Below, in pieces: positions 8,054-25,064 of a stretch of 64,000 nt of DNA. Under the pieces are notes generated by a model. The model was given only the letters and a program-made list of their open reading frames with translations. It was not told where the DNA came from and searched no databases. How positions within the stretch are numbered: position 1 is the stretch's first letter; each line of letters starts with the position of its first letter. The stretch is from Myxococcota bacterium (GTDB lineage: Bacteria; Myxococcota_A; Bradymonadia; UBA4248): assembly GCA_045643185.1 (NCBI GenBank), contig JAZUKH010000046.1:10883-74882 (forward strand), read 5' to 3'. The position numbers were made by a program, and so were the translations under genes.

Positions 8054-9472
8054 ATGACGATGCAGGAAAAGACGGAGATTCAAACTCAACAGGAGATTGC
8101 CAAACAGCACGAAGCGATATGCTCTTTGTTTGGGCTCAAAAAGACGTACGAGGAACGCGCAAACGCAGCTAGTACGCCAAAAACTGGCCTTTCGACGAAA
8201 CAGGTCGTCGTTTTGGTGTTGGCGGCTTTGTTGATCGTTGGGACGATCGTCGGCTACAGTGTGGCGCAGAAACTGATCGACCAGAAGGAACAGGACGAGG
8301 TCGTGGCCAAAAAGCAGCGTGAGATCGAAGCCGAAGAAGCGCGCCGTAACCGCACGGAATTTGCCGAGATCGCGTTTTTGGATTCGTTGCCCGAACAGGC
8401 TGCGATTTCGATGGATGGCAAAAAACTGTACGCCAAGACGCCGGATGGCAGCTACACCGCGTTGCGCGCTGGCAAGGACACTTGGATTCGTTATTTGCCG
8501 GTCAAAGAGAGCACGGTGATCCAGTTTGGCTTTGAGGCCGAAGGGTTTAGGCCGCTGTCACGCAAGATCGCTTACTATGACTGGTATCCTGCGCACAAAG
8601 GTGACATCACGCTTCAGAAGATCTTTCGCAAGATCGTGATGGAACCGGATGTGACGCCGCGTTTGTCGAATTGTGAGGGCGACGCGTGTGAATGGACGGT
8701 GTTTCGCGAGATCATGTTTCGTCTGAAGTATGCTGAGACGGCCAAGATCGCGGTCATCAACGAGGCTGATCGTGGTGTGAACCGCGAGCGCGTGTTGCGC
8801 ACCCATCCCGCGCTCGCGTCGGCGGTTGGCTTGGATGTGGCGAATTTGCCCAAGAATGATGCAGACATGCCGTTGGCTGCGCAAAACCTGATGCAGTTTG
8901 TCGACAAACATCCGTTTGATCTGTATGGGACGATCACGGTCAAATCGAATGTGGCTGACACGCGTGTTTCGTTTTTGGGTGAGCCGCTGATGGTGTTTAA
9001 GGCGTCCGGGTCGATGAGCCAGGTCAAGGTGGATCCCGAAGCGCCGTATACATTTTCGACGTATGGTCAGGGGCATCCGATCGTGATCACGGAGCCGTTG
9101 AGTTTGCGGCTTGAAGCGCCGGGTTATCCGAGCTACGTGACGGAGATCCTGCCGCATCAGTGGCGTTGTGAGCCAGTGTCGGCCGAAGTTCAGGCGGCTT
9201 TGACGGCGCCTGCGTTCACGCAGCTGGAAGATACGAAAGCGGATTATCACCATTATCTTTGCGATTACACCATAGAGATTGCCGTCGACTTTGAGTCGAT
9301 CAAAGCTGCTGCGGATCAGGATGCGGCAGCGGTTGCTGCCGCTCAGCTTGAGGCGTCCAAAGCAGCCGAGGCCAAAGCTGCGGCTACAAAGGCTGACGGG
9401 CAGTCGACGTCTGAAAAAGCGGAGGCTGCGCCACAAGCTGCTGCGAACGGGCAGAACAATGTTGCGAAGTAA
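8054..9472 (+). CDS. Hypothetical membrane-anchored protein with an Ala/Gln-rich C-terminus
   Basis: Internal TM anchor (VVVLVLAALLIVGTIVGY); ORF with plausible codon usage. Confidence 0.5.
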   Translation: MTMQEKTEIQTQQEIAKQHEAICSLFGLKKTYEERANAASTPKTGLSTKQVVVLVLAALLIVGTIVGYSVAQKLIDQKEQDEVVAKKQREIEAEEARRNRTEFAEIAFLDSLPEQAAISMDGKKLYAKTPDGSYTALRAGKDTWIRYLPVKESTVIQFGFEAEGFRPLSRKIAYYDWYPAHKGDITLQKIFRKIVMEPDVTPRLSNCEGDACEWTVFREIMFRLKYAETAKIAVINEADRGVNRERVLRTHPALASAVGLDVANLPKNDADMPLAAQNLMQFVDKHPFDLYGTITVKSNVADTRVSFLGEPLMVFKASGSMSQVKVDPEAPYTFSTYGQGHPIVITEPLSLRLEAPGYPSYVTEILPHQWRCEPVSAEVQAALTAPAFTQLEDTKADYHHYLCDYTIEIAVDFESIKAAADQDAAAVAAAQLEASKAAEAKAAATKADGQSTSEKAEAAPQAAANGQNNVAK

Positions 9473-11525
9473 GCTGTGGTTGACCTTGACGCTGCTTTTG
9501 GGCGTTGGCATGACGGCCTGCGAGCAAAAACAGCCGGTAGTGCTTGAACCGTTGCCGGTTTTGGCGATGCCCGAGGTCGAACTCACGCCTTTTTTGCCCA
9601 AAACAGCGTGGTCAGACCAGCTGATCGACTGGAAGATCGTGTCGTCGGCGCTTCGTGATGGCGTGACGATGCCAGACGCGCTTGAAACGCGGTTGACGCG
9701 CGATGATCGCGAGATCTGGAAGCGCGTGAGCGCGAATGTCGAGGCTTATGAAGCCAATCGTCGCGATGCGCTCGTTTTGGCAAGTGCCCAGGTGCCGCAG
9801 GCTGTCGAATGCGTGCCGCCGAGTTCGGCGTTCAGTTTGCAGCAACGCGCCATGTTAAGCCGCATGTTGCAGCAGCATCGCAATGTTTTGTGGCGGCTAG
9901 GGCGCCTCGAAATGGCGTCGCGCTATGTCAAAACATCGCTAAACCAGTTTTTGCCGCAATACGCCGGTGGGCGCATCAAAGACGCCGATACGGGCGTCGT
10001 GCAGCCCATTCGGTCGCTGTTTGAGCAGATCCAGGAGATTCGTTCACGCTACCAGACGCCCAACGGCGTGTGGTCTCCGGGAGAACTGCATTTTCGCATG
10101 GCGCGCCTTGCTCAGATCGCGCCGGCGATGCTTCAACTCAATGATTCGTTTGGCGTGTGGGCCGATCAGATCGCGGCGAGCACGCGGTGGCGCTATTTGG
10201 TCGGCAGCGCCGAGCCTGTGCGCGAAGCGCTTAAGATATGGTTGGACGAATACGAAAGCGTGTTGACGGCTTATCGGCATTTGGCCAGTGCTACGCAGGC
10301 GCTCGAACAGAGTTTTGGACCGCCGAATCAGCTCGTCGCATTTCCATGCATTAACCAGAATTTGCGCCGTATGCGCATTTTAGCGAACCTGTTTCAGGTG
10401 ATCCTGCCCATGCAATGGTCGCTCGCCCAGTCTGAAGTCAACGCCATGCACGTGCATCAACGCGTTTTGACGCCAGACTATCGCGAGGCAAAGCAGGAAT
10501 TCATGGCCAGCGAGGTTGTGGCGACGCATGAAAAAATGGTCGCGCTCAGTCGTAAGTTGGCGCACGCGGCTGACTTGTTGTTGATCATGTGGGATCAGTC
10601 AAATTACAGTGTTTGGAGCGGCTTGCCTGACTTTGTGGATCCCATTCATCACCATTCCGGCACTGCGGTCGAGGATGCTGAAACGTGGCGAGCGATGTAT
10701 TCGGTGTTGCAGGGTGACTTGGCGCGTTTGTCGACGAATTTGAAGCCTGAACCCGAACAGCCGCTCAACAAGTACGGCAAACCGTACGCGGCGCCAGTGC
10801 AAAAGATCGTTGAAGAGATCGAGTCGCCGACGCGCATTGACGAGGTCGAACACGGGCTGCTTTCGATTTCCGAGATCGAGTCTCACTTGGTCGCGATTCG
10901 CGACCAGTTGCTGCGCCTTTGCATGGACGGGGCGTGTCGCAGTTTTCCGGAAGCCGAGTTGGCCAATTCGCCGCGTAAGAGTCAATGGGTCGTGTCGTGG
11001 CGTCAAAGTCCTGTCTCGGAGCGAACGATCGGGCATTCGTTGATCGTGCTCAAACTGTGTCAGCTGCACCTGAGTCGTTTGGTGCAGCGTCTGGCCGAGA
11101 TCTATGGCTGGTTTGCCGAAACGTCGAATGCTGACATCACCTGGAAAACGTTAAAAGCCTGGCAGCGTATTTGGACGCTGTATGCCGAGCCCAATGGGAC
11201 GTATGCGAACTTTTTGAGGAGTGTGTCGACGCTTGACAAGCAGATCATGGAGATGGCGATTCCGCTCGAAAAGCGCGCGCAGTCGCCGGAACTGCTTGAA
11301 TTGCTCAAAATCCAGGATGAGTTGTTCGACCTGACGATCGACTATGCGCGCTTTATCGATGCGCGCGTGCACGCCCCCGTGCCGTTTGATGACATCACCG
11401 AAACGTGGTTATCGCTTCAAAGCGCGATCTCGACGATCGCGCGTTTGACGGCCGAACGCGACGAAAAAGCGGCGCCCGATGCGGTAAAAACCAAAAAACG
11501 CGTGCGTCAGGACGTTGATCGATAG
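9459..11525 (+). CDS. Hypothetical lipoprotein; start at the internal ATG (MLRSKLWLTLTLLLGVGMTAC), not the long upstream extension in the ORF track
   Basis: Lipobox signal peptide; 14-nt overlap with the stop of the upstream gene. Confidence 0.5.
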   Translation: MLRSKLWLTLTLLLGVGMTACEQKQPVVLEPLPVLAMPEVELTPFLPKTAWSDQLIDWKIVSSALRDGVTMPDALETRLTRDDREIWKRVSANVEAYEANRRDALVLASAQVPQAVECVPPSSAFSLQQRAMLSRMLQQHRNVLWRLGRLEMASRYVKTSLNQFLPQYAGGRIKDADTGVVQPIRSLFEQIQEIRSRYQTPNGVWSPGELHFRMARLAQIAPAMLQLNDSFGVWADQIAASTRWRYLVGSAEPVREALKIWLDEYESVLTAYRHLASATQALEQSFGPPNQLVAFPCINQNLRRMRILANLFQVILPMQWSLAQSEVNAMHVHQRVLTPDYREAKQEFMASEVVATHEKMVALSRKLAHAADLLLIMWDQSNYSVWSGLPDFVDPIHHHSGTAVEDAETWRAMYSVLQGDLARLSTNLKPEPEQPLNKYGKPYAAPVQKIVEEIESPTRIDEVEHGLLSISEIESHLVAIRDQLLRLCMDGACRSFPEAELANSPRKSQWVVSWRQSPVSERTIGHSLIVLKLCQLHLSRLVQRLAEIYGWFAETSNADITWKTLKAWQRIWTLYAEPNGTYANFLRSVSTLDKQIMEMAIPLEKRAQSPELLELLKIQDELFDLTIDYARFIDARVHAPVPFDDITETWLSLQSAISTIARLTAERDEKAAPDAVKTKKRVRQDVDR

Positions 11526-11721
11526 TAAGCGCATTAGATAGGCTTGCGTGCTAAACACTTAGCGATGAAAATAGATATGTGCTTGGACTGAAGGAACACA
11601 CGCACTTAGTAGAGTGTAGGGGGATGCACCTACGATACAGAGACACGCGTTCAATGTAAATTTCTGTCTCTTGCTGCGCCGTTTATGACGCAACAAAAGA
11701 AGATGCAAGTTTAACTAGTGC

Positions 11722-12180
11722 CTACTTGTTTTCTGAGTTGTCGTATATTTCATTATATAAATCTCTGGCTTTTTGTAAGAAGAATAGCATGTATGATTCG
11801 TTTGAATCAATACCATTATTCAGAGTGCTTATCATGTCATTTAAAACATAAAACCCCGTGTTTGCGTATTCTTCAGCATATTGGTACGCTAAAGAATCAT
11901 CATCCAAATTTTCAATTTCGTTATCATGGATAAGTTGATTGATAAGAATTGAGCGCAAAGTGGCTCTTTTGAAATAATCCAGAGTTTCTGAGCGGATAAA
12001 GTCCACGCGTTTTTTTAGTGGTTTTCGTTGACCATTTTCAATGCCAATAGCGACTGCAAATAGAAACAGATCACTTCGATCACAAGATGACTTACCCAGT
12101 TTCATGAAGTCTAAATCATCGATTTGTGGTATGATTTTAGATTGAACGTATGAATCAATATAAATTCTTGGTTCTTGCAT
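11722..12180 (-). CDS. Hypothetical protein, last gene of the AT-rich 6-gene operon
   Basis: AT-rich codon usage matching the island; start immediately follows the upstream stop (12180/12183). Confidence 0.5.
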   Translation of the reverse strand: MQEPRIYIDSYVQSKIIPQIDDLDFMKLGKSSCDRSDLFLFAVAIGIENGQRKPLKKRVDFIRSETLDYFKRATLRSILINQLIHDNEIENLDDDSLAYQYAEEYANTGFYVLNDMISTLNNGIDSNESYMLFFLQKARDLYNEIYDNSENK

Positions 12181-12182
12181 GA

Positions 12183-14168
12183 TTAAATCTCCTTAATGGC
12201 ATTGGTGTAGATTTCATCAATTGGTTTGAGAATGTGTTTGCTTGCTACAATCGTATTTGTGAATTGAGCTTGTATTTCTTTTGAAAATTCAGAGGGTGTT
12301 AGGGCAAGAATGATTTGCTTTGTTTTGCTGATTTCGACAAGTGATTTTGCAAAATTGGATCGATTTTCTGTATCGACACGACCAACAGGAGTATCAATAA
12401 ATAATAAAGAATCAAAACCAGATATTCTATGCATGGCAAGTGTAAAAGCTAAGGCTAATAATTGGCGTTCTGCGGATGAACCGACTAAATCTGTATTATT
12501 TAAATGTTTATTGTAAACGGCCATGTTATAGTCTTCATCGAGCGTAATGCGATCAAATGTATTCTTTTTCCACTCTAACTTTTCAAAAATCCGCATAGTT
12601 TCGGTTTCAATTTGTATTCGAAGGTCTGAGATGCATTTTGTTTTTAATTTTTCAAGAAGATCTAATGCATTGGTCGCAAATAGATAGTAATTATTAACAA
12701 TCTTATTGCTTTCTTGTTTCTGAGTGGCTTCAATTAGTTTTGTTTGATATTCCTTAATCTTTTCTTGGCATTTGTTCAGTTTAGGTGTTAATTGTCCAAT
12801 TTCTTCAGAATCCTTAGCAATTTGATTACGGTAAAAATTTCGTCGTTCAATACAATTTGTAATTTCATCAGGGTCAGGACATAGCTTAATTTTATTGATA
12901 AGTTCTTCCTTGGTTAACTCACATTCTCGTATTTTTTGTTCGATGTGAGCCTGTTCTTTTATAAGACTATTGATTTGATCATTCAAATCGCGTGGCCTTG
13001 AACACCATTTTTCAAGATCACTTTTGATTTCAACGAGTTTGTGTGATACTGATGATGAAAAATTAATCTGGTCAAGTAAATTTTGAATTTTCTGGATAGC
13101 TGTTTCGGATAAGTGACTACCACAGATTTTACATTGTTCATCTTTTAATGTATCATTTAGTACGCTGATATCAATACGAGGAGGAAGTTGTCCTTTGGTG
13201 CTGGCGTCGATGATGTAATGGTATACGGATTGATTTGTTTTATATAAGATAATTGAAATAAATAGATCTCGTGTTAATTTATAAAGTTTGGATTTGTTTG
13301 TATTTAAAGTTTTGTTGAAGTCATCGATCTGGGATTGGGTTAAGTCGAGCTGCTTTTGTTCGTCAGCGATGCATTCCATGCCAGAAATTTGTCTTGTGAG
13401 TCGTTCGAATTCTCTATTTGAAATAGCTCTATCCTGATTTAAGGTGTTTATTTTTCTTTCATATTCATCTTTTGATTGTTTACAATTGTTTAATTCTGTT
13501 TCGATTTCTTGACATTTTGGAATGTCTTTAGAGATTTGTTTGCAATATGAACTTATTACGCCTCGTAAATCGTTTTCTAGGTTTTCTAGATCAGTGATTT
13601 TTGACATCTTATAAATAGAACTTCTTACATTTTTTTGTTGTTGACTATCGAAATAGTCTGATAACTGCTCACCATCAAAAAAGAAGTATCCTCGAATAGC
13701 TTGGGGAAATTTTGAACGAATTATTTCTGTGGCTTCAGCATTCGTTTTAACATCTGATTGGTTTGTTAATAAATTAGTTTGTGTGACAATAAACTCATCT
13801 GCACCAGTCATTTCTGTTCTGACGCTGTATTTTAAAGATCGTTCTATTGTCAATTTTATGTTTTCTATTGTGCTGCGCGCTATTATCACAACTTTTACTG
13901 CGACAAACTCATCACCAATGCCTTTTGTTTCAAGAATCGATTTTGCATTGCAAATTGATTTTTTATCATTTCTATACGTTAATGACCCAATATGTGGCTC
14001 ATCATTATATAAACACCAATTGATGGCATTTAACAGGTTGGTTTTGCCAACGCCGTTACGACCGATAATGATGTGTAGGTCAGCATTGCCCTGATTGGGC
14101 TGATCAAATTGAAAGAAAGCATCCTGATATTGACGGTAGTTAATGATTTTGACGGAATCAATTCTCAT
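12183..14168 (-). CDS. SMC-like Rad50/SbcC-family ATPase with a central CxxC zinc hook
   Basis: N-terminal Walker A GRNGVGKTNLLNAINWCLY; long central coiled coil containing CKICGSHL; C-terminal LLFIDTPVGRVD (D-loop/Walker B region). Confidence 0.7.
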   Translation of the reverse strand: MRIDSVKIINYRQYQDAFFQFDQPNQGNADLHIIIGRNGVGKTNLLNAINWCLYNDEPHIGSLTYRNDKKSICNAKSILETKGIGDEFVAVKVVIIARSTIENIKLTIERSLKYSVRTEMTGADEFIVTQTNLLTNQSDVKTNAEATEIIRSKFPQAIRGYFFFDGEQLSDYFDSQQQKNVRSSIYKMSKITDLENLENDLRGVISSYCKQISKDIPKCQEIETELNNCKQSKDEYERKINTLNQDRAISNREFERLTRQISGMECIADEQKQLDLTQSQIDDFNKTLNTNKSKLYKLTRDLFISIILYKTNQSVYHYIIDASTKGQLPPRIDISVLNDTLKDEQCKICGSHLSETAIQKIQNLLDQINFSSSVSHKLVEIKSDLEKWCSRPRDLNDQINSLIKEQAHIEQKIRECELTKEELINKIKLCPDPDEITNCIERRNFYRNQIAKDSEEIGQLTPKLNKCQEKIKEYQTKLIEATQKQESNKIVNNYYLFATNALDLLEKLKTKCISDLRIQIETETMRIFEKLEWKKNTFDRITLDEDYNMAVYNKHLNNTDLVGSSAERQLLALAFTLAMHRISGFDSLLFIDTPVGRVDTENRSNFAKSLVEISKTKQIILALTPSEFSKEIQAQFTNTIVASKHILKPIDEIYTNAIKEI

Positions 14169-14365
14169 TTTGAAATCTCCTTAGATGTAACATTTCTATT
14201 GATTTCGTTATAAGTCTTTTCTATGATCTTTTGACAAGTCTTTTTATTGTGGATTCTATCATTGAATTGATAATTAATTAGCCTTTGTAATAACTCTTGA
14301 ATGCTTTTGTCGCCACGAGTAACTTCAAGAAGATTCTTTTCGATGAGTTCATTAAGATTTCCCAT
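14165..14365 (-). CDS. Small 66-aa protein, translationally coupled upstream of the SMC-like ATPase
   Basis: ATGA overlap with the downstream gene; lies inside the operon. Confidence 0.4.
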   Translation of the reverse strand: MGNLNELIEKNLLEVTRGDKSIQELLQRLINYQFNDRIHNKKTCQKIIEKTYNEINRNVTSKEISK

Positions 14366-14377
14366 AATATTCTCCTT

Positions 14378-16486
14378 TTATATTAAACCAGTTTTGGTTA
14401 TATCGGCAACCGCCTGGCTTCCGTTTATTGCTTCAGTAGCTATAGCAAAGATTCGTTTCATTTCTTTTTTGAAGATTCGCTTATCAAAATTTCTTTCTTC
14501 ATTTGACCAATCAGAATAATCAGGAGTGACAACAAAATCATCTATATAGGCAAGCTGTTTGTTGCCGTTATCACGTAGCACTCTACCTAAACGCTGAATA
14601 TACTCTCTTGCGTTCTCACTACTTGACAATAGAATTGCCCGTGAGGCTGTCTTGATGTCAATCCCTTCGTCCAGACATTTTATCGCAACAAGTATCTGAT
14701 AATAGCCGTTTCGAAATTTTTCAAGGATATCTTCTCTTTCAGATATACCCTTATCATCAATTTTTGTTGATTCGGACTGCGTAAATCGATGGCCAGATAT
14801 ATTAAGCTTAACAAGTAGTTCTTCAACTTTATCTATCTGTTTGTCTGAGACATAGATAATAGTATCACGAATGTCTGAAATTGAGGAGAGAAGAATTTTT
14901 AATGCAGAGATCTTGTGTTCAGCATTTTTAACGATATTTGCTCTTTTGAATAGCAGTTGTTCATATTTTTCATTATTTTCTATGTCATCATCTTTTGTGT
15001 GAATTAATTTGGATAATTTCTTAGTCAGCTTGTTATATTCGCTAGATTCGTTCTCAGTTAAATTGATAGGATATATATTGTATTTATAACTCACAAGAAA
15101 TGTACGATTTGTTACTGGGTTGATTGTTGTTAATGCATCATGTAATGAAAAAGTGAATTCATTGTTCATAAAATACGATTTAAGCAGATTTGTTCCTTCT
15201 TCATCGAACCATCTATCTGGAGTGGCGCTTAAACCGAGCCGATAATCGTATTTATCGAGCAATGACTTTTTGGTTTTGGAGGCTCCCATGCCATGGACTT
15301 CGTCCCCTATAAGCATGGTTTTATAACTATAGGATTTGATAATCTTTATAAAATCATCAGTGCACGCTGAACAGTGTGTTACATAGATAAGAATTTGTTT
15401 ATAAATTCCAAGATTAGCTTTTTGAAGAACACAGTTCAGATCTTTTTTCCAATTTGTGTGGTTACTATCGCAGACAATTGTTTGATCAAATCGAAGTTGG
15501 AGTGAATCGATTTCCTTTTTCCATTGAGATTGGAGTGTAATTTGTGGAATTGCTATGATTGTCAATAATTTTTGACAATTTTGTTGCGCATTTTCAAGAC
15601 ATTTTACTGCTGTGAAGGTCTTTCCTGTTCCAGTGGCCATTTCGAGCAACATAATTCTGTTACATTCGATCCAGTGTTCAATCGCTCTATTTTGATATGG
15701 AAAAGGCAACTTTTCAGATTGAGGCTTTGTAATAATTGATACACTTGTGTGATATCGGTTTTCGCGATATCGATCTAGAGATAGCTTATCATTTTGATAA
15801 TCTTCGCCTCGTTCTATTAGACGTTGTTTGACCGCAGTTGGTAAGTCTATGACTTCTAGCGAAGCGACGCTGTTATTCCACATTGAGTTAAAGTCGTTTT
15901 GGTGTCCTTGAAAGTATTCTCGTTGACCCGCATTCCAATTTTTATATACCTCGAAACGTTCATCATTCCATAACCAACCTGAGGCCGATTCATTGTTTGA
16001 ACCACTAAAAGAAATGCCATAATCGATTGATTTATTGTCGTACAGAATGCCAAACTTTTGATGCATAATGGGATTGTTGGCTGTATTCCTTACGTCTTTT
16101 ACGATAGCTATTTTTATTTGAAGTTTATTATTGGCCAACATCCAGCCAAGTGCTGCAATATGATCATTGAGAAAGTAATCAGGAATGTCTTCGATTGCAG
16201 TGATCATAGATTCTTCTAGAATCTTGTTTTGGTTTTCAATGACATTTTGAATGGTTTTAATATCATCATCACTTAGTTTTGGACATGTAATGAGTCTCAT
16301 GGTGCCACCATTTGCAATAAGCCCACCAATGCCTCGAGCTGCAATAGCTAAACTAGTTGATGAAAAATACCCCGATATTCTGTCATATTTCCTGGCTTCA
16401 CATAGTGCGGGAATATAGAAATCAGAGATCAAGTCGTCTTCTGAGCTTTTATATTGTATTTTTATGGGCAAATCCTTCAAGCTCAT
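14378..16486 (-). CDS. Fusion of an N-terminal PLD (HKD-motif) nuclease domain to a C-terminal SF2 DEAD/DEAH-box helicase
   Basis: IMHQKFGILYD...GSNN HKD-type motif (single copy); helicase motifs MATGTGKT (I), IGDEVH (II), LSATP (III), QRLGRVLR (VI). Confidence 0.75.
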   Translation of the reverse strand: MSLKDLPIKIQYKSSEDDLISDFYIPALCEARKYDRISGYFSSTSLAIAARGIGGLIANGGTMRLITCPKLSDDDIKTIQNVIENQNKILEESMITAIEDIPDYFLNDHIAALGWMLANNKLQIKIAIVKDVRNTANNPIMHQKFGILYDNKSIDYGISFSGSNNESASGWLWNDERFEVYKNWNAGQREYFQGHQNDFNSMWNNSVASLEVIDLPTAVKQRLIERGEDYQNDKLSLDRYRENRYHTSVSIITKPQSEKLPFPYQNRAIEHWIECNRIMLLEMATGTGKTFTAVKCLENAQQNCQKLLTIIAIPQITLQSQWKKEIDSLQLRFDQTIVCDSNHTNWKKDLNCVLQKANLGIYKQILIYVTHCSACTDDFIKIIKSYSYKTMLIGDEVHGMGASKTKKSLLDKYDYRLGLSATPDRWFDEEGTNLLKSYFMNNEFTFSLHDALTTINPVTNRTFLVSYKYNIYPINLTENESSEYNKLTKKLSKLIHTKDDDIENNEKYEQLLFKRANIVKNAEHKISALKILLSSISDIRDTIIYVSDKQIDKVEELLVKLNISGHRFTQSESTKIDDKGISEREDILEKFRNGYYQILVAIKCLDEGIDIKTASRAILLSSSENAREYIQRLGRVLRDNGNKQLAYIDDFVVTPDYSDWSNEERNFDKRIFKKEMKRIFAIATEAINGSQAVADITKTGLI

Positions 16487-17214
16487 ATATTAATTCTCCA
16501 GTCGATGCAATCCATTAGCTGAATAAGGTAGGATCCAGATAATGCGAATGTTAAGACCTGCTTCGTGTTAGCTTGGCGTCTTACTGCAGTTTTGTATGAA
16601 ATCGAAGATAAACAACTGCTATAGCTCCAAAATCCTTTGGTGTATATTGATTTTAAGATCGTTTGTATGAAAATATTAGAAAATAAAAGCTTTTTTATAA
16701 GCGATGAACGTATTGTTAACGGGTAGATGAGCATTTGATTGCTAAGTGCTGTTATCCTTACTTTGATTGGCTTTTCTTCGCTAATGGTTACCAATTTCAT
16801 CATGGCCGCAAGCTTAGCATGGTTTTCACCATATTTTAGTTGAGCTCCTGGTGTTTTGGATTGTATCAATTGGTAGCCTAAATCTTTAAATCCCATGCCT
16901 TGAGGCATGAATGACAAAATCTCACTTACTCTGAATATGCCATGTTCAAAATTGCTAAAACATGGTATGTCGTTTGCCAATAAAGTAACTTCTTTTATAT
17001 TATTGTCGTTAAAAATCTGATTGATAAAAGCCTCTTCAGAATACTCATTTAGTTTTTGTATGAAAATTTCTAATTCGTCTTTTGAAGCATTGTTGATAAT
17101 GTTATTTATTTCTGGTTCGTTGGTTAAGAATTTATGCAAAAAATCGTCATAAAATTGAGAATTGTAGGCCTGATCGAGATTGTTAGTATTCGCATCTGGA
17201 TATGTGTTATTCAT
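16483..17214 (-). CDS. Hypothetical protein (no recognisable motif), operon member
   Basis: ATGA overlap with the downstream gene; AT-rich island codon usage. Confidence 0.5.
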   Translation of the reverse strand: MNNTYPDANTNNLDQAYNSQFYDDFLHKFLTNEPEINNIINNASKDELEIFIQKLNEYSEEAFINQIFNDNNIKEVTLLANDIPCFSNFEHGIFRVSEILSFMPQGMGFKDLGYQLIQSKTPGAQLKYGENHAKLAAMMKLVTISEEKPIKVRITALSNQMLIYPLTIRSSLIKKLLFSNIFIQTILKSIYTKGFWSYSSCLSSISYKTAVRRQANTKQVLTFALSGSYLIQLMDCIDWRINI

Positions 17215-17216
17215 TA

Positions 17217-18395
17217 CTAAACCTCATTATATCTCATGTCGAAATACTGCTTCGCTATTTGTGGATAGTCTCGCTCAATCTCGAGCAGAGCTTTCATTGA
17301 AGAACAGTAAGTACCTTGTGTTTTGTGAAGAGCCTGATTAGCTTCACAGAACTGGCGAAAACTCATTTTTTTGAGCATGTTTGGTTGGTTGCACCAGCGT
17401 GCGATGCTGACATATAAACTTGAATATGGCGAGATTTTCCAGGGTGTTTCGTTTATATTCTGGTATCGCATGATATAGGGAAGACATTTATAGCGAAGAA
17501 GCAGTTCAATGCGTTTGAATGCATTGGCAATATCCGTGGCATCGGTGCTTTTGAAGCCTACTAGTACATAGAATTTTACACTCGTTGATTGAGTATATTT
17601 TCGAATTAATTTCAGTTTTTGCTCGATAAGCTTATAATCTTCTACGTTATCGAAGGCGAACGTGAAGTCACCATCGTAGTGTGCGTTAAACAGCATTTCA
17701 CATTTTTCTTCGGTGAGTATGCGTTCGTCCAGGCCTTGTTTGAATTTAAAGGGTTTATTGGTGTCGATGAGCTTTTGGAGTAGCGTTTTCCATTTGGGAT
17801 AACCGAGAAAATTGTCGTCTAAAAGGCAAATCTTTTTTAGGTTCTGGTCTAAAAACTCCTCCAAAGGACTATGTTCGAAAACATGGTCATATTTTTGATT
17901 CACGCAGAATGGACAGCGTCTGAAACAGCCTCTTGTCAAAAATCCAATCGAATAATTTGTGTATTCCTTGAATTGAGTCATGAATGATGACTTATTAAAG
18001 TTCTTCCCTTCTTTTAATTTGGTTAATTCGGCCTTCTGGACTTCGTCGGCTATCCATGCGTCATAAAGATGATAATCTGGACAACAGTGTTCGATTTCTG
18101 GGAGGAGGTTAGGTGCTTTGTCGAAATAAAATCCAGTTCCACCAATAGAAACATTTTTATGTTTCGTCAGGTTGATGGGAAAGAGTGGATCTGTTCCAAC
18201 AGGTGTGTCTGTAAATACTTTGGAAACAAAGACATGCTCATAGGCCTCAAGATTTTTGTAGTCAAGTTTGAGTTCGACTGCTTTGCCTTGGGCTTTGTAG
18301 TATGCCGAGAGTTTTTCGCTTGCGAGATTGGGAAAGCGATGTTTATCGCGGGCGATCAGATCTGCATCAATGATGGCAATGGTCATGATAGCCAT
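17217..18395 (-). CDS. Radical-SAM-like protein (CxxxCxxC), possibly with an N-terminal B12-binding-like domain; first gene of the operon
   Basis: GFLTRGCFRRCPFCVNQ contains C-x3-C-x2-C at about residue 155; RBS AGGATGG. Confidence 0.5.
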   Translation of the reverse strand: MAIMTIAIIDADLIARDKHRFPNLASEKLSAYYKAQGKAVELKLDYKNLEAYEHVFVSKVFTDTPVGTDPLFPINLTKHKNVSIGGTGFYFDKAPNLLPEIEHCCPDYHLYDAWIADEVQKAELTKLKEGKNFNKSSFMTQFKEYTNYSIGFLTRGCFRRCPFCVNQKYDHVFEHSPLEEFLDQNLKKICLLDDNFLGYPKWKTLLQKLIDTNKPFKFKQGLDERILTEEKCEMLFNAHYDGDFTFAFDNVEDYKLIEQKLKLIRKYTQSTSVKFYVLVGFKSTDATDIANAFKRIELLLRYKCLPYIMRYQNINETPWKISPYSSLYVSIARWCNQPNMLKKMSFRQFCEANQALHKTQGTYCSSMKALLEIERDYPQIAKQYFDMRYNEV

Positions 18396-18436
18396 CCTTG
18401 ATCCTGAAAAAGCTGGTTATTTATGAATAATCTTCG

Positions 18437-18449
18437 CCCCCCCCCCCCC
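18437..18449. repeat. Homopolymeric C13 tract in the leader/promoter region of the island operon
   Basis: CGCCCCCCCCCCCCCG read directly; lies between a TATAAT-like box (minus strand, ~18460-18465) and the start codon. Confidence 0.8.
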
Positions 18450-18814
18450 GGTCTGGCTAATTATATTCGGTTTTCTCATTAGTATGTTTCCAGTGTCTAA
18501 ATGTTCAGTTGATTTGGTTAGTTAAGTGCTTTCCTGTACGAAACAGTGTTTCTGTGTGCAATAGCTCAAGCTAGTTTAGTTGATCAGTTCTCGGTGATCA
18601 ATGATTTTTTTCTCTTTTCACAAATTATGTGCATATATGTAATAAATGTGATCGCGCATCTGCGAATAGTCTGTCAGCAGAAATGTACTGCTTAAGATAC
18701 GGAGTACAATTTTGGTGGGTATGCTATTCATTTGTTTGAAACAGATTCTGATACTTCACGTTTGGATATGAAAAAACTTGTCCCGAGAAGCCATGGACGA
18801 CGCTCGCGTCGTCT

Positions 18815-19405
18815 TTAGATTTCGTGTTTTTCGACGAGCGTGCGGATGATGCAGGCGGGCGTGTAGAATTCACCGGCGTTTTGGCCTTCCTGACTGGTGA
18901 ACTTAGAGAGGTAGTATTCATAGGTTCGCCCGAGCAAATCTTTGTCGTGCATCTGCGCGTTCATGTCGATATTGGTAAAGAGATTGATGACTTCGCCGAG
19001 TTTTCGTTTGTCAGAGTTCGGGGCGCGCAAAGTTCTTGGGCAGAATGCTGGCAAGTGAAGTGTTTTAGCCTTCGATGGAGGGCAAGGCCTGATCGATCGT
19101 CGTGCCGTTTGTCGCGTTGTGCGCATCGGTTGCAATGACTTTCTAGCGCGCATTTTCGGGCACAAAAAAACGTGCTCTGCTACGTATTCATCTCGATCTT
19201 CTTCAAACCCCTAACCCTCGCCTTCTTCGACGAGCTCCCGATATCGTGCTTCAAAGCGATCGCTGATGTGTTTTAGGAAGATGAGCCCGAGGATAACGGA
19301 TTTATATTCAGCTGCATCGATGTTGCCGCGAAGATTGTCCGCCGCTTTCCAGAGTTTGTCTTCAAATCCAAGTTCTGTTGTTGAGGTTTGGGTTTTCTTT
19401 GCCAT
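18815..19405 (-). pseudogene. hsdM: Decayed type I restriction-modification methylase (hsdM) remnant in two frames
   Basis: Fragment A (19211-19405) LGFEDKLWKAADNLRGNIDAAEYKSVILGLIFLKHISDRFE matches the HsdM_N domain; fragment B (18815-19165, other frame) LLGRTYEYYLSKFTSQEGQNAGEFYTP matches the start of the N6-MTase domain, then stops. Confidence 0.7.
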
Positions 19406-19672
19406 GGTTTTTGTTTTTGTAAATTGTAGGTTGTAGCCATCGAGCCCATCTTGCGTTCCGCTTCGACGGACCCGATTATTATTGTTATGGACAGTTTTAT
19501 AGAGACTCAATAGCAGCGCCTTCCAGGCGCCTTTTTCGGGGATTGTTTTACTCCGGAGGCGGTCGCTACGCGCCCACCCCCGGTTATGCAAGACATCGGC
19601 TTCCAGCCGAATATCTATGGCCATAACAATAATTGCTCATTGTAGTGTCGCCTTCGGTGTGCGCGAAGCGCA

Positions 19673-19714
19673 AATAATTGCTCATTGCTCATTGCTCATT
19701 GCTCATTGTAGTGT
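19673..19714. repeat. Heptamer tandem repeat (ATTGCTC)x4-5, with related copies at 19630-19648 and 20035-20058
   Basis: AATAATTGCTCATTGCTCATTGCTCATTGCTCATTGTAGTGT read directly. Confidence 0.8.
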
Positions 19715-19933
19715 TGTTCGGTAGCCCACGGCGAGTATCGCTGGAAGGCTGTAAAACTTGTATCGATACGTTTTCCCGTCATCGGCAGTTTGTGCAAAAA
19801 ATGCATAAACTGAATTTTCGTCGAGTTCGTGCTCGGAAAAGATGTTTTTAAGGTGCTTTGCGGCAACAGTTCGATCGATCCCAAACAACTGCCCAATCCC
19901 TTTTGGCGTGAGCCAAACCTGATGATCCTGCAC
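19703..19933 (-). pseudogene. N-terminal fragment of a RhuM-family (virulence/Fic-associated) protein
   Basis: GKTYRYKFYSLPAILAVGYR resembles the conserved RhuM N-terminal motif; only 76 aa remain where full-length proteins are ~300 aa. Confidence 0.5.
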
Positions 19934-20343
19934 ACGGACTTCGATGCCGTTTTCATCGTGTTCTCGCGTAAATTTCAGAAAGTCGGCGACCTGATTTCGG
20001 ATGTATGGAAGAAGCCATGTTTATCTCCCGCTAATCATTGCTCATTGCTAATTCGACTTTTGCAAGCCGACTATTGTTATTATAGCACATAATACGCGTC
20101 ATTTTCTGTCGCAATTCTTTAGCAGGATCGCCTTGAGCCGCAAAAATTTGCGGCTCTACGGCTCGCTGGCGGCGCTATTGCCTGCGTCGCTACGCTTGCC
20201 GATACGCCCTTTGTCGCCGGCAATCAGCTTCGCGAAGCTCGCGGATACGAACGCAGCCTCTGTCTTTACGCTAGATCGCCGCCCAGTCTGTGCGCATGCA
20301 GTCGTACAATCTGAATTAAAATCGACCTGAATAAACATCGTGA

Positions 20344-20817
20344 TCATCTTATAAAGAACTTATAATAGTCGCTTTCCTGTGGATATTTCCATGGGTCTGT
20401 TCGATGATTGTAGTACAAATTGCATTCTCTCCCTATAGATATTTTTGTGTTGGTAACATTAGATGTGTTCCATTTGTTCAGAGGTCTGTTAAATGCTGCT
20501 GCACCACTAAACATCTTCTGCATGTTTGTAACATTGGAAACGTCCCAATTGTTAATATCTGAGTTCATTTTTAAAGCGTCACTGAACATTTCGGACATAT
20601 CCATGACGGCAGACAAATCAGGAACGTCCTTTGCTTTAATTACTGCATTTTTAGTTTGAGCCATAAAATAATGCATGCTTCTCCATACGTTTGTTCCCCA
20701 CTGGTCTACACTGAGAAGGGAACAATCATCGTCGTCGAATAGGCGCATCGAAGGTATGGTTCCAAGCAATACAAGCCGAACAAGTCGCGCAGTCTTGCAT
20801 GTCGAAGGCACGAACAA
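20344..20817 (-). pseudogene. Fragment of a surface protein with 26-residue repeats (BspA/Listeria-lipoprotein type)
   Basis: FSDALKMNSDINNWDVSNVTNMQKMFSGAAAFNRPLNKWNTSNVTN matches the F..A..FN..I..WDVSNVT.M..MF repeat; short, AT-rich. Confidence 0.5.
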
Positions 20818-20949
20818 ATCGCGTCCGCTCGCCCAATCTCAGCCTGCTTGCCTTCGGCTTGGCTACGGCTGAGATTTTGAGTTTCTGACCAGCCAAAGCT
20901 TCCAGGCTGAGTTGTCACAAGTTGTGGGGCGCGGCGAGCAGTGCCATCT

Positions 20950-21303
20950 TTACACTTCGTGTTTTTCGACGATATAATCTTCAATATTGCGTTTTTCGTG
21001 CGAGAAATTTACGCCCACCAGATACGTCGTTTTGTGTCCCAGGGTGAATGGAAGGACATAATCGTTATCTTTGATCTGATCGAGTGCAAGTTGGGCTGTT
21101 TTGTTGTATTTGAATTCAAAAATATATAAATAATTGCCAGTTTCCATGAGCAGATCGATGCGGCCATCAGCGATTTTATATTCTGCATGGACATAATATC
21201 CGGTCAGTGTTGCCAATAAATAGATAAAATTCTGGAAATGTAGTTCGCGATCGTAGCTGATATCGTATGGTGCACCAGCCAGAAGCACGGTGATGCGTTT
21301 CAT
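20950..21303 (-). CDS. PD-(D/E)XK nuclease-like C-terminal module, split from the upstream AAA-ATPase-like gene
   Basis: Aligns with the C-terminus of the intact paralog at 40484-42067 (IADGRIDLLMETGNYLYIFEFKYNK vs GYADIAFIPY...IVELKRN). Confidence 0.5.
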   Translation of the reverse strand: MKRITVLLAGAPYDISYDRELHFQNFIYLLATLTGYYVHAEYKIADGRIDLLMETGNYLYIFEFKYNKTAQLALDQIKDNDYVLPFTLGHKTTYLVGVNFSHEKRNIEDYIVEKHEV

Positions 21304-21325
21304 AAACGCGTCAATATTACCGGAT

Positions 21326-22480
21326 TCAAGTTCCTTGGAGTGTGCTTTTACAATAGAATGGTACCAGATAATCTATAAATCCTTCTTCAACTTCGCGATT
21401 GGGAAATTTTAATGTATATTCATCAAAATCCGGATCGTAATCTGATATGGTTAAATAACCAGTCTGATAAAGGATCGGAACGGGATCCTCGCTGTCGAAA
21501 TCGATATTTTCCAAATTACTTCCTTTGGTCGTAATTCCGTTAATTTCGTCGAATTGCCAGTGATTTTTATGAATCATTTTTGCCAGAATATCTGGTGTAC
21601 CTGTCGCAAACCAGAATTTGCCAAAGCGAAGACTGTTAAAGGCACTGAGCAGGCTGAATGGATTATACATGCCCGGTCCCTCGGCAGTGAAATGATAGCC
21701 ATCATAGAGTTCTTTTAGCTTCGATTTGGTCTTTTCAATCGAGATTTTCTGCTTTTGAGCGAGCGCTTCGATGTCATCTTCAAATTGCGTTAAAACTTCG
21801 TTTTCAGAAATGCCGCAAATTGCAGAAAACTGTTCATCCAGAGAAATGTCTTGCAGGTTGTTGAGTTCACTGAAAACACTGAGTTTTCCCATTTTGCTCA
21901 CACCGGTGATGAACACAAATCGGATATGTGCGTCTTCGCTTTTCAGGTTGCCGTACAGCCCTCGCAAGGTCGTTCTGTGTTTTTCACGAAGCTCGGGATA
22001 GTCCATGGATTCGACGATCGGTTTTTCGTATTCATCGATCAGGATGACGACTTTTTGGCCGGTCTTTTGGTGTATCGTTTGAATCAGGCGCTGAAAGCGG
22101 ACGTTGAGTTCCAAATCAGCAGGTTCAAGGCCATATTGTTTTTCCCATTCATGAAACTGATAATTCAGTTTGGATCTAAGTTCGCCCTCTTCCGCATAAT
22201 TCGCGCCGTTAAAATCGATCCGCAAAACTGGATATTTGATCCAGTCGTGTTCGATCTGTGCCATGGCGAGCTGGTTGAACAGTTCTTTTTTTCCCTCGAA
22301 ATAGGCTTGTAGCGTGGACAGAAGCAGGCTTTTTCCGAATCGACGCGGGCGTGCAAGGAAATAGTAGCCTTTGTCCTTTGCGATTTCGTAAACCAAGTCC
22401 GTTTTATCGACGTAATAGAAACCGTCTTCACGAATATTTTCAAATGTTTGAATGCCGATCGGGTATTTTTTCTTAGCCAT
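21326..22480 (-). CDS. Predicted AAA-ATPase-like (PF09820-type) protein, truncated or split before its nuclease module; start at MAKKKYPIGIQ
   Basis: YPIGIQTFENIREDGFYYVDKT...FLARPRRFGKSLLLSTL family signature; the upstream extension in the ORF track is read-through of a repeat element. Confidence 0.6.
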   Translation of the reverse strand: MAKKKYPIGIQTFENIREDGFYYVDKTDLVYEIAKDKGYYFLARPRRFGKSLLLSTLQAYFEGKKELFNQLAMAQIEHDWIKYPVLRIDFNGANYAEEGELRSKLNYQFHEWEKQYGLEPADLELNVRFQRLIQTIHQKTGQKVVILIDEYEKPIVESMDYPELREKHRTTLRGLYGNLKSEDAHIRFVFITGVSKMGKLSVFSELNNLQDISLDEQFSAICGISENEVLTQFEDDIEALAQKQKISIEKTKSKLKELYDGYHFTAEGPGMYNPFSLLSAFNSLRFGKFWFATGTPDILAKMIHKNHWQFDEINGITTKGSNLENIDFDSEDPVPILYQTGYLTISDYDPDFDEYTLKFPNREVEEGFIDYLVPFYCKSTLQGT

Positions 22481-22656
22481 AGTCAACCTCACAGGTGTGC
22501 ACGCGCTACCAATCCGTATTATAGCATACATTTTGTTGGTATTAGTACGTGGAGACGTGAGTCTCGAAGTTGAGACGTGCAGGTCATTTTGACCAAGCCA
22601 AGCCGCTAGGTTGAGGTGCACTACTGACTGGTGTGGGCAGCGTGCCATGGGGTTAT

Positions 22657-22752
22657 GGGCCCTGCCAGGTGAAGGGGTAGCGGCGTATTTTTTCCATGAT
22701 GCCACGCAGCATCATGGGAAAAATAGCCGCGTAGGGGAAGGCCTTCCCCTTC
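22657..22752. repeat. REP/MITE-like intergenic repeat, copy 3
   Basis: GCCAGGTGAAGGGGTAGCGGCGTAT-[palindrome TTTTTTCCATGATGC..GCATCATGGGAAAAA]-TAGCCGCGTAGGGGAAGGCCTTCCCCTTC. Confidence 0.85.
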
Positions 22753-22755
22753 ACA

Positions 22756-24651
22756 TTAATCAAAATCGATGATGTTGCGTGCTTTGAGGTTGCAGAGGAT
22801 CTGAGCGGTTTCGGTCTGCGACCATGCGGAGAGTGAGAGGACGTCGTTGATGGAGACGACGCCGTCGATGAGTGAGAGGATGAAGCCGGCGTGTGCGTCG
22901 ATATCGGTTCGGCGCGAGAGTTCAGCCATATTGATGCAGATGCGTGGTGTACGTGAGAGCGGATGAAGTTTTGAGAGTTCATCGGTCTCGAGTGTGCTTT
23001 TTCGTCCGCGTTGTTCGTCTTGAACGGGTGGTTTGGTTTGATCGGGATTGTAAGCCGCCTGTGGCGCGATCGGGTGAAGACCGACGGAGGTGGGACGGCA
23101 GTTTGCGTCACGGACTGCCTGCAGTTTGTTCATTGTGGGACGATAGTTGTCTTCGGAAGCTGGGAGAGGATTGACTTCTCCGGGACGTCGCAGGACAGCG
23201 GAATCGCGACGCGGTCGTGCGCCGATGCCATCGAGTGAAAGATTGGGCGGACGTTTTGTGTCGAGTTGTGAGTCGCGATTGAGTTTACCGAGGTTGCTCG
23301 CGGTGCGATTATTGATGTTGCTCGAGGATGGGTTGTTGATGCTGCTCGAATAGTTACTAAGGTTGCTCGAGGAGCGGTTATTATTGAAGCTGCTGGAACC
23401 GGCGAGTCGATTTTGAGGCCCGGTCTGTCTCAAGCTTTGGCTTGTGGTCGCGGGGGATGGTTCACGGGGGGCGCCTGAGGGGCCGAGCGGATGCTGATTT
23501 GGATTGAATTCGATGCTGCTGGAGGGGCGACGAATGCGTCCCGTGGGCGTTTTTGTCATGCTCGTGGGGTTTGGCGTGACGGTGTTTTCGAGCGAGTTGA
23601 CATTGGTGCCGGGAATGTGCGTCGAGCCGTTAAAGACGTTGGCTTTTCCGGGGGCGGGCGTAGAGATATCGCCTGACGCGTTATCGGCCGTGAGGGGCGC
23701 GAGTTTGAAGTTGGGTGTGGGCTGCTGAGGTGCGTTCATTTTTCCGAACGGACCAGGCGTCATGGGTTGATCATCGATCGAGTTGATCGGCACGGCCGGT
23801 CGGAAGAGCGGCGTATTGGTATCACGGTGCAGATCGTTGATCTGATGTCTGTTCTGATTTGGTTTGAAGGGATTCTCTGCGACCTGGCGGATATCTTCGG
23901 TGTTTGAATCTCGCCGTGGGCGAGCCCAGTCTTCGGGGATACAATCGTGGACGTCCGAGGGGGAACGGGTAGTATCATGGTTATCGGGACGATTGTCAGA
24001 GAGGTTGACCCACAATTGCTGTCCCCCGGAGGCGAATCGTGTTTCCGCTTCTTTTGCACCGTTGATGTTGAGTGGATCGACGGGGGAAGCCGTGGTTTCA
24101 TTGAGAGCGCGATTGAGCTGCAGGAGTCCTGGATGAGAATTTGCGGGTTTGAATGGGTATGAATTATCCGTATTGCTTTCTGGATCTTCGACATCGATAT
24201 CGACATCGACTTGTGGCTGCGAGGTGAAATCGGGGTGTACGGTTGAATGATCCGGTGGGGTACTGAAGCAGAGGTGTGGTTTTCCACTTTGTGCGGCGCC
24301 AAAATGGCTATCGAAAGAAGCGTCGAGCGCATTCATGAAGTCGTCATCGCCGAAAGGCAGTCGTGAGTCGAGCGTGCGTTCGCTGGCGGCGAAGTCGCTG
24401 AAGCTTGAATCGATTTGACTGGACGAACTGAGGGTTGCCGCAGCGGCGAGGAGGTTGTCGTAGTAAGCGTACATAGACAACGGCGCATCGTCAAACAGTC
24501 GAAGTGTGAGATCGAGCAATTCTGTGATGTCGGCGCGTTTTTGGCGAAGTCTATCCGCTTCGTCGCGTGCGCGTTGGGAGTCACCACTGTAGTAAATTTC
24601 AACGATATTTTTGATGCAATCCGGAATATCCCGGAGCGTATTAATCGCCAT
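22756..24651 (-). CDS. Large low-complexity (Ser/Pro/Asn-rich) hypothetical protein with structured N- and C-terminal ends
   Basis: 631-aa ORF; its polarity is consistent with the adjacent repeat and the intergenic region; central region looks disordered. Confidence 0.45.
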   Translation of the reverse strand: MAINTLRDIPDCIKNIVEIYYSGDSQRARDEADRLRQKRADITELLDLTLRLFDDAPLSMYAYYDNLLAAAATLSSSSQIDSSFSDFAASERTLDSRLPFGDDDFMNALDASFDSHFGAAQSGKPHLCFSTPPDHSTVHPDFTSQPQVDVDIDVEDPESNTDNSYPFKPANSHPGLLQLNRALNETTASPVDPLNINGAKEAETRFASGGQQLWVNLSDNRPDNHDTTRSPSDVHDCIPEDWARPRRDSNTEDIRQVAENPFKPNQNRHQINDLHRDTNTPLFRPAVPINSIDDQPMTPGPFGKMNAPQQPTPNFKLAPLTADNASGDISTPAPGKANVFNGSTHIPGTNVNSLENTVTPNPTSMTKTPTGRIRRPSSSIEFNPNQHPLGPSGAPREPSPATTSQSLRQTGPQNRLAGSSSFNNNRSSSNLSNYSSSINNPSSSNINNRTASNLGKLNRDSQLDTKRPPNLSLDGIGARPRRDSAVLRRPGEVNPLPASEDNYRPTMNKLQAVRDANCRPTSVGLHPIAPQAAYNPDQTKPPVQDEQRGRKSTLETDELSKLHPLSRTPRICINMAELSRRTDIDAHAGFILSLIDGVVSINDVLSLSAWSQTETAQILCNLKARNIIDFD

Positions 24652-25064
24652 TTTGAAGTTACTCCTCTCAGGCTTAAGACAGGAAATCTTCGTTATTATA
24701 GCAGAAATTTTACCGGATGAGAAAGGATAGTTTTATTGAGTGGGTGGCATCATTAGATATAGCGAATATGGATCATGGGAAAAAATTTGGTGTGATGACG
24801 GCAAAAATCTGATAAGATACGAAGAAGTTTGTTCGGTGGGCGAAGTGGGTCCACTGGAATACGTTTTGACGTGGAAATGTTTGTTGAAGCGTGAACCACG
24901 GGCGAGTCGAGAATGTGATTCGTCTGTCCACAGCATGTATTTATGTGGTGTGGAGAAGGTTTGTTGCCGATCGGAACATTACTTCATCATTTCAGGATAG
25001 AAGTTACGGAATCAGGTATGGAGGCGAGTCCTTTTACCGGTTTTCTTTTGAGGAGTTCACTTTT

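Follow-up and report, generated by a model that had tools for sequence, protein, structure and literature searches.

What does an intact operon do among the wreckage of other defence genes, and how did it come to stand there? A 64,000-nucleotide (nt) stretch of a Myxococcota bacterium genome (GenBank assembly GCA_045643185.1, contig JAZUKH010000046.1, positions 10,883 to 74,882; hereafter the window) raises this question in an 11-kb segment at 11526-22655. A sequence-only reading had described the segment as a patchwork in decay, with an intact AT-rich operon beside fragments of type I restriction–modification (R–M), RhuM, surface-repeat and ATPase–nuclease genes, and all of these items are present where it placed them or nearby, with database support far above chance. 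Our overall reading, to which we give a probability of roughly 70%, is that this is a lineage-specific accessory segment holding one working six-gene cassette beside dead remnants, and that the cassette is a PbeABCD system led by a radical S-adenosylmethionine (radical-SAM) enzyme that is predicted to mark the DNA of the host.

The operon consists of six closely packed minus-strand open reading frames (ORFs; 11722-18395). In the order of transcription, with lengths in amino acids (aa), these encode:

17217-18395, minus strand: radical-SAM enzyme, 392 aa, with a CX3CX2C motif and an N-terminal Rossmann-like domain; matches phrog_9298, 'radical SAM domain protein' (9.8e-52).
16483-17214, minus strand: partner protein, 243 aa, fast-evolving and helical, with conserved motifs; its gene follows the radical-SAM gene in 33 of 34 Pbe-type loci.
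14378-16486, minus strand: PbeA, 702 aa, with a PLD-like domain and an SF2 helicase; matches PADLOC PbeA over its full length (6.5e-217).
14165-14365, minus strand: protein in the PbeB position, 66 aa, fast-evolving, assigned by position and size alone; its gene overlaps that of PbeC.
12183-14168, minus strand: PbeC, a DndD-like/CxC-type ABC ATPase, 661 aa; matches PADLOC PbeC (5.2e-79) and, below the cutoff, TIGR03185 DndD (5e-36).
11722-12180, minus strand: PbeD-like protein (DndE cognate), 152 aa; matches TIGR04062 dnd_assoc_4 at 8.1e-7, with 29.3 bits against a cutoff of 74.25.

The earlier description of this operon as intact and AT-rich is borne out at 35% G+C (GC), although it had not been identified as PbeABCD with a radical-SAM pair. 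PbeA carries the motifs GTGKT and DEVH and matches ResIII (1.1e-18), Helicase_C (8.6e-16), DEAD and TIGR04095 dnd_restrict_1 (6.7e-108). In PbeC the Walker A motif reads GRNGVGKT and a putative zinc hook is formed by CKIC (residues 346-349), a position at which the PbeC proteins of two other loci, L001 and L084, have CPLC and CMC. The PbeD-like protein corresponds in position and size to the PbeD proteins of L084 and L001 and is 25% identical to that of L084 (1.7e-5); it has no match in PADLOC or Pfam. The PbeB counterparts of L001 and L084 are 57-58 aa long and share no sequence similarity with the 66-aa protein of the window.

PbeABCD was described by Xiong 2019 with a PbeB of 66 aa and a PbeD of 152 aa (PMC6459918), and was later reinterpreted as an HKD-SF2 nuclease/helicase, a small disordered protein, a CxC-type ABC ATPase and a DndE cognate (PMC10853773). 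The operon of the window resembles this PbeABCD or CxC ABC ATPase–DndE system (PMC6459918, PMC10853773) in its PbeA and PbeC, in its PbeB and PbeD candidates, in gene order and in the sizes of the small proteins (66 and 152 aa), but here two additional genes, for the radical-SAM enzyme and the 243-aa partner, come first, and the hook has the form CxxC. Unlike DndCDEA-PbeABCD, it contains neither dndC, dndD, dndE and dndA nor a methyltransferase gene; neither the operon nor the other large ORFs of the window yielded a dnd, ssp or methyltransferase gene. PbeC is related to DndD of the phosphorothioate systems, and the PbeD-like protein probably to DndE; DndA and DndC (the cysteine desulfurase and the PAPS-reductase-type enzyme) are missing, and the candidate modifier is instead a member of the canonical radical-SAM superfamily. 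The proposed logic is like that of DndABCDE-DndFGH and SspABCD-SspE, in which a modification module is combined with exchangeable restriction modules. According to Xiong 2019, 58% of pbeAC loci have no dnd genes, and what these loci pair with was left open (PMC6459918).

The six-gene order recurs in L001, L084 and L097. Among 52 metagenome loci with at least 3 kb of sequence downstream of a radical-SAM homologue, PbeA/PbeC follow the radical-SAM gene in 34 (33 of them with a detectable partner), a ParB-like/136-aa/SNF2-helicase module in nine, the partner only in three, and other genes or none in the remaining six. The downstream module is exchanged modularly, and the linkage to the radical-SAM gene is conserved. 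Between the window and L001 the radical-SAM enzymes are 68% identical, the partners 36%, PbeA 40% and PbeC 28%; by analogy, the conserved enzyme and its variable partner resemble an enzyme with a specificity subunit. The coupling of a radical-SAM enzyme to PbeABCD is not described in the literature searched, and is unmentioned in PMC6459918 and PMC10853773; a description outside that literature is possible. The second cassette type (L082, 10001-15786; L086, 1307-7051) comprises the radical-SAM enzyme, the partner, a ParB_N-like protein, a 136-aa protein, an SNF2 helicase and an HTH_ParB-like protein, and the L082 copy lies on an integrative element with integrase, relaxase and primase.

The 392-aa protein is predicted, from its motif and its AlphaFold2 (AF2) model, to be a member of the radical-SAM superfamily with CX3CX2C in a partial TIM-barrel core. 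C157, C161 and C164 are invariant in the 23 sequences aligned, and the model has a predicted local distance difference test (pLDDT) score of 84.9. The window protein has no match in Pfam; below-threshold matches to PF04055 occur in distant family members only, and distant plasmid homologues are labelled 'radical SAM protein' by PGAP. Foldseek matched the model to MiaB (2e-7) and MgmA (8.5e-7), with further matches to SuiB, RlmN and BlsE. The MiaB-type methylthiotransferases and the class B (cobalamin) radical-SAM methylases, to which MgmA belongs, share with it an N-terminal Rossmann-like domain followed by a CX3CX2C core, but the TM-scores to MiaB and MgmA are just 0.45-0.50 at 12-13% identity, and the window enzyme lacks a TRAM domain. 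Because an invariant Cys triad is absent from its N-terminal domain, a MiaB-type auxiliary cluster is not expected there. The family is large: we counted more than 6000 homologues (90%-identity clusters), mostly from gut and rumen metagenomes, the best 120 of them at 65-71% identity, and 1711 clusters at 50% identity. Some members are longer, at about 620-735 aa (P0137, P0169, P0124 and P0128), and include one weak C-terminal DUF7226 match and one LAGLIDADG intein-like insert; an intein is also annotated in a homologue from an archaeal plasmid. Ophion, a radical-SAM defence system (bioRxiv 2025.09.30.679545), was ruled out as the identity of the cassette because its partners are others (PHP and PRTase).

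For the partner, four non-identical homologues only were found, at 28-37% identity. It has no match in Pfam, PHROG or PDB sequences; its AF2 model (pLDDT 88) is helical and probably includes winged-helix elements, with no significant fold match.

A mechanism can be proposed from this arrangement. The radical-SAM enzyme, aimed by its variable partner, would put a covalent mark on host DNA, and PbeABCD would scan DNA and act on unmarked invader DNA, following the logic of DndCDEA-PbeABCD with another modification chemistry. We infer that the cassette is working and active against phage. More tentatively, in a reading that we rate as less likely than not, the enzyme and its partner may constitute an undescribed, sequence-targeted DNA-modification module that uses radical chemistry and supplies the self-mark for both 'solitary' PbeABCD and the ParB/SNF2 module, with phages using the enzyme alone as counter-defence.

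The pair might instead have nothing to do with DNA self-marking, and serve in peptide or protein maturation (for example, of PbeB) or make a viperin-like antiviral small molecule, or the PbeABCD genes might be an orphan that is inactive without phosphorothioates. The fold matches include SuiB, which modifies peptides by radical-SAM chemistry, but the best structural matches include MiaB and RlmN, which act on nucleic acid. The weak winged-helix-like matches of the partner could reflect a peptide-recognition element as in the maturases of ribosomally synthesized and post-translationally modified peptides, yet the pair is also coupled to the ParB/p136/SNF2 module, which has no PbeB. Radical-SAM homologues stand alone in phages, where their neighbours include DNA methylase, ParB_N and PAPS-reductase genes of the kind usually seen in DNA-modification modules. 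The inactivity of solitary PbeABCD was raised as a possibility by Xiong 2019 (PMC6459918), but the presence of the six genes together in 33 of 52 loci is hard to square with an inactive orphan. We regard these alternatives, taken as a group, as unlikely.

To place the cassette in its genome, we considered the segment and its surroundings. Two conserved genes of this uncultured bacterium (encoding 748 aa on the left and 631 aa on the right) converge on the segment with their 3′ ends, and every gene and remnant within it lies on the minus strand. Three features without an assigned strand bound the segment and the operon:

11526-11721: left junction spacer, 196 nt, from the stop codon of the 748-aa gene to the stop codon of PbeD.
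18396-18811: leader, 416 nt, 39.7% GC, upstream of the operon, with a run of 13 C (C13) at 18437-18449.
22656-22753: REP-like dispersed host element that forms the right edge of the segment and includes a hairpin at 22733-22750.

GC content drops from 53-58% in the flanks to 32-38% across 11.6-18.5 kb and then runs at 40-50% until 22.5 kb. Taken by block, the cassette has 35.1% and the left spacer 44%, against 52-53% for the flanks; among the remnants described below, hsdM has 49%, rhuM 47%, DUF285 40% and AAA/PDDEXK 42%. The segment is in this sense a mosaic of at least three GC classes (35%, 40-42% and 47-50%). A 132-nt piece of host-like composition (20818-20949, 58% GC) lies between the DUF285 ORF (40%) and the PDDEXK ORF (42%).

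The segment is inserted past the stop codon of the flank gene and ahead of the REP-like element, an intergenic unit of about 100 nt with a GC-rich hairpin that has at least six further copies in the window (3276-3331, 7829-7888, 33844-33935, 35377-35436, 54679-54750 and 57326-57367). The 748-aa flank protein had no match in the genome_contigs and metagenome_contigs searches; its orthologues are 49-65% identical. On the metagenome contig L089 (65%), the 748-aa orthologue is followed after about 98 nt by the 631-aa orthologue on the opposite strand, and the contig matches the window at 22756-22929 and 25048-25259 with 74-76% identity. Because the flank orthologues are adjacent there, the sequence from 11526 up to the REP-like element (22656) counts as inserted DNA by comparison with L089, and the region is accessory and lineage-specific. 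L089 is the sole decisive empty site: L087 ends 680 nt past the gene, L088, L090 and L093 have other neighbours, and other relatives have either a long gene immediately downstream or a different synteny. A palindromic element is also present at the empty site of L089.

The sequence-only reading saw successive insertions at a hotspot. Insertion agrees with the empty site in L089 and the mosaic GC content; repeated use of the site across lineages does not find the same support. No defence cargo was found at this site in the recovered relatives (L087-L094), so its recurrent use is not demonstrated. Loci retrieved by NadB were too distant for a comparison of the site, with synteny gone beyond one gene; the nearest genomes by this protein are metagenome-assembled genomes from gut and rumen, labelled Myxococcales, Myxococcota or 'Proteobacteria', at 69-71% identity (83% for L087). 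The integrase remnants or att-like direct repeats that the same reading proposed to look for at the edges did not materialize: there is no integrase among the segment ORFs or their Pfam matches and no direct repeat of at least 10 nt linking the segment edges. Scans of the segment for tRNA and Rfam families gave no match, nor did a megablast of the 11-kb segment against plasmids. The spacers are without similarity to all fetched loci, a distant blastn search with 18396-20343 matched the conserved hsdM N-terminus only, and promoter and terminator scans gave nothing above shuffled sequence. Elsewhere in the window the large ORFs are mostly housekeeping genes; two on the minus strand (42234-46157 and 46436-48514) encode large cysteine-rich-repeat proteins of a eukaryote-like type (Pfam cEGF, CPL1-like and Stig1), and similar Stig1/TSP_3 proteins are encoded near the 748-aa-gene orthologue in L093.

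The cassette has the GC content of the low-GC hosts that carry related cassettes (34-37%), and its import, still unameliorated, was therefore probably recent. The C13 run of the leader reads G13 on the coding strand, at 42-54 nt before the radical-SAM start codon, and no other homopolymer was found in the window (at thresholds of at least 8 for G/C runs and at least 10 for A/T runs). A phase-variable tract, a scar of a junction and an artefact are all conceivable; as the run is absent upstream of 69 related radical-SAM genes, a conserved regulatory tract of the cassette was ruled out. An independent sample provided a contig of the same species (L137, Logan ERR6929725) that is 99.2% identical to window positions 8966-11531 and ends 6-8 nt past the stop codon of the flank gene, which hints at presence or absence of the segment at the strain level.

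That L137 ends exactly at the left edge would also suit an assembly chimera, in which a low-GC cassette from another organism was misjoined into the contig, as would the abrupt jump in GC content and the closeness of C13 to the right edge of the cassette. Yet a chimera would require two independent misjoins to put 6.7 kb between sequences that are neighbours in relatives, sharp GC islands are a usual signature of horizontal transfer, and a homopolymer of 13 nt is far below assembly k-mer size. The records that are 100% identical to the radical-SAM enzyme and the partner presumably share one NCBI contig of 83.8 kb, which also argues against a misjoin. We judge a chimera to be very improbable.

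The remainder of the segment, on the upstream side of the leader, contains the following:

18812-18837, minus strand: 26-nt copy of the 3′ end of the PDDEXK_9 ORF, 24 of 26 positions identical to 20947-20972 (repeat family D5); it ends the hsdM remnant.
18815-19405, minus strand: hsdM pseudogene remnant covering approximately residues 13-240 of a protein of about 500-545 aa, in three pieces with three in-frame stops and two frameshifts.
19623-19716, no strand assigned: (CATTGCT)n heptamer repeats, four tandem copies, and a direct repeat of 17 nt, downstream of the rhuM remnant (repeat family D1).
19685-20012, minus strand: rhuM 5′ remnant covering residues 6-111 of a 334-aa homologue, with a frameshifted start region.
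20344-20817, minus strand: DUF285/BspA-like repeat ORF, 157 aa, with a TTG start; matches DUF285 (3.6e-21, model positions 3-104 of 120).
20950-21303, minus strand: PDDEXK_9 nuclease module, 117 aa; matches PF08011 (2.6e-19, model positions 2-104 of 105).
21326-22480, minus strand: AAA-ATPase_like module, 384 aa, with its true start at MAKKKYP; matches PF09820 (1.1e-68, model positions 1-201 of 201).

In the hsdM remnant, translation begins at 19405 (MAKKTQ...), meets a stop after EEGEG, shifts frame, passes two further stops, shifts back and ends at 18815. Pfam accordingly places HsdM_N (3.2e-15, model positions 2-48 of 135) at 19211-19405 and N6_Mtase (3.2e-10, model positions 2-40 of 311) at 18815-19165, in another frame than the HsdM_N ORF. 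The joined pieces align with residues 13-240 of the 544-aa HsdM of 3khk (1.4e-26), that is, with about the first 40% of the protein, so the AdoMet-binding and catalytic half has been lost. The earlier finding that hsdM survives as N-terminal pieces without hsdS or hsdR holds; no similarity to hsdS or hsdR was detected in the window with one reference operon, that of the Selenomonas ruminantium plasmid pSRC6, as query. The rhuM fragment also reported earlier is longer than then seen, extending to about 106 codons (20002-19685); it is 57.5% identical to RhuM of pSRC6 (tblastn, 5e-34) and matches PF13310 below the gathering score (2.1e-4, model positions 2-36 of 252). Compared with the type I operon of pSRC6 (hsdM-hsdS-rhuM-hsdR), the window thus holds remnants of two of its gene types, but as 5′ stumps alone and in the order rhuM′ then hsdM′. 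By these lesions, hsdM and rhuM are true pseudogene remnants. A 15-nt copy of the repeat found downstream of rhuM occurs on the other side of the remnant (20035-20049), and the repeat region extends to 20062; the heptamer motif is not dispersed elsewhere in the window, and the stretch separating the copies holds two small hairpins. Between the hsdM start and the rhuM remnant, the spacer contains a 16-nt inverted repeat (19478-19493/19618-19633, 94% complementary, with 124 nt between the arms).

The separation of the AAA-ATPase gene from its nuclease module, recognized in the sequence-only reading, comes down to one frameshift near 21330-21390: the first ORF, whose true start is at 22480, stops at 21326, and the next starts at 21303. 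The alignment with intact fused homologues stays in one frame as far as FPNREV and moves to another for the nuclease part; the frame change does not lie at a long homopolymer. The split pair belongs to the AAA-ATPase_like + PDDEXK_9 fusion family (PF09820 + PF08011), with both domains complete but in different frames and ORFs, whereas fused members have 527 aa in this window and 607 aa in L086. The 527-aa paralogue (40484-42067, plus strand) is intact and shares about 27% identity with the split copy; its 40% GC, against 52% for the genome, makes it probably foreign as well. For the 157-aa surface-repeat ORF, the proposed similarity stands, at about 35% identity to proteins that carry the annotation 'BspA family leucine-rich repeat surface protein'. 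Its TTG start, its shortness and the lack of a recognisable signal peptide make it a plausible, not a certain, fragment.

Pseudogenes are common in defence neighbourhoods, and decay of this kind is ordinary; here it is supported by the lesions in hsdM and rhuM and by the AAA/PDDEXK split. Some of the pieces might nevertheless function, with AAA-ATPase and PDDEXK as two subunits, or their fusion restored by frameshifting or by correction of a sequence error, and DUF285 as a stand-alone protein. The split gene retains both Pfam domains in full, with a single frame change between them, and single indel errors occur in metagenome assemblies, the probable source of this contig; however, intact homologues (527 aa in the window, 607 aa in L086) are single fused proteins, and the frame change is away from long homopolymers. 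The DUF285 model is almost fully covered (3-104 of 120), but BspA-family proteins are mostly much longer, and a TTG start without a signal peptide does not favour an independent protein. As hsdM and rhuM are past repair in any case, we consider such residual function improbable.

How, then, did hsdM lose its second half? The 26-nt copy encodes VEKHE[I/V] and a stop codon plus 3 nt, and the PDDEXK_9 ORF has the tail ...IVEKHEV, a stop codon and 3 nt; of matches this good (24 of 26 nt), about 1e-4 would arise by chance in a 12.5-kb self-comparison (analytic estimate). The tail of the hsdM remnant reads ...GEFYTPACIIRTLVE followed by KHEI and the stop, and similarity to the PDDEXK_9 tail ceases on both sides. 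Because LVE is native to HsdM (compare LIVEM in 3khk), the join was made through about 8 nt of microhomology (TCGTCGAA), connecting hsdM to the last 18 nt of a PDDEXK_9-type gene; hsdS and hsdR were presumably lost too. The 26-nt copy is a recombination scar and direct evidence that illegitimate recombination removed the remainder of hsdM. Beyond it come the unrelated 416-nt leader and then the cassette. The scar fits microhomology-mediated replacement by the cassette and equally a separate deletion: either the cassette may have arrived with a PDDEXK tail and replaced the R–M genes in one microhomology event, or a separate deletion may have fused hsdM to a second PDDEXK copy. The sequence-only reading held that a newer island had displaced an older R–M system. 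The cassette does look recent, but the PDDEXK tail and the leader lie between it and hsdM, and the displacement claim has only partial support.

The many lesions of hsdM against the one of AAA/PDDEXK suggest different ages for the remnants. The 11-kb segment might alternatively have come as one composite, pre-scarred mobile island, with neither successive insertions nor decay in place. All genes and remnants are contiguous and on one strand, the site is empty or different in each relative seen, without intermediates, and the 26-nt tail repeat connects both ends of the remnant block; in L086, too, an AAA-ATPase_like/PDDEXK_9 gene adjoins the radical-SAM cassette. A single origin sits poorly, however, with the three GC classes and the 132-nt piece at 58% GC, with the unequal lesion load of hsdM and AAA/PDDEXK, and with the segment, in which no integrase, att site or mobility gene was found. 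We hold single acquisition to be less likely than not.

Several points weigh against our overall reading of a working, self-marking cassette beside decayed genes. The DNA-modification role of the radical-SAM pair is predicted from gene neighbourhood, and at 39 of 40 IMG/VR viral loci the radical-SAM homologue has neither the partner nor Pbe genes, so the enzyme can act in other contexts. The fold matches of the partner to winged-helix proteins are weak, all with E > 0.1. The PLD-like domain of PbeA matches PLDc_2 at 6.7e-5, with 23.2 bits against the Pfam cutoff of 27, and the strict HxK(x)4D motif was not found in PbeA, where the sequence reads HQKFGILYD. A helix–turn–helix regulator gene precedes the cassette in L001, L082 and L084; neither the gene nor a remnant of it was found upstream of the cassette in the window, which makes expression of the cassette uncertain. 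As to decay, the single AAA/PDDEXK frameshift could be an assembly error, and the proposed order of events finds no close relative at an intermediate stage with which to compare it.

The scar at hsdM is a clean example of how a defence neighbourhood can be remodelled without integrases. PbeABCD led by a radical-SAM enzyme is a widespread variant and a testable candidate for a new kind of DNA self-marking, and the enzyme with its partner is a candidate answer to the question of what the dnd-less pbeAC loci pair with. If this is true, a very large protein family without a Pfam model would gain a function.

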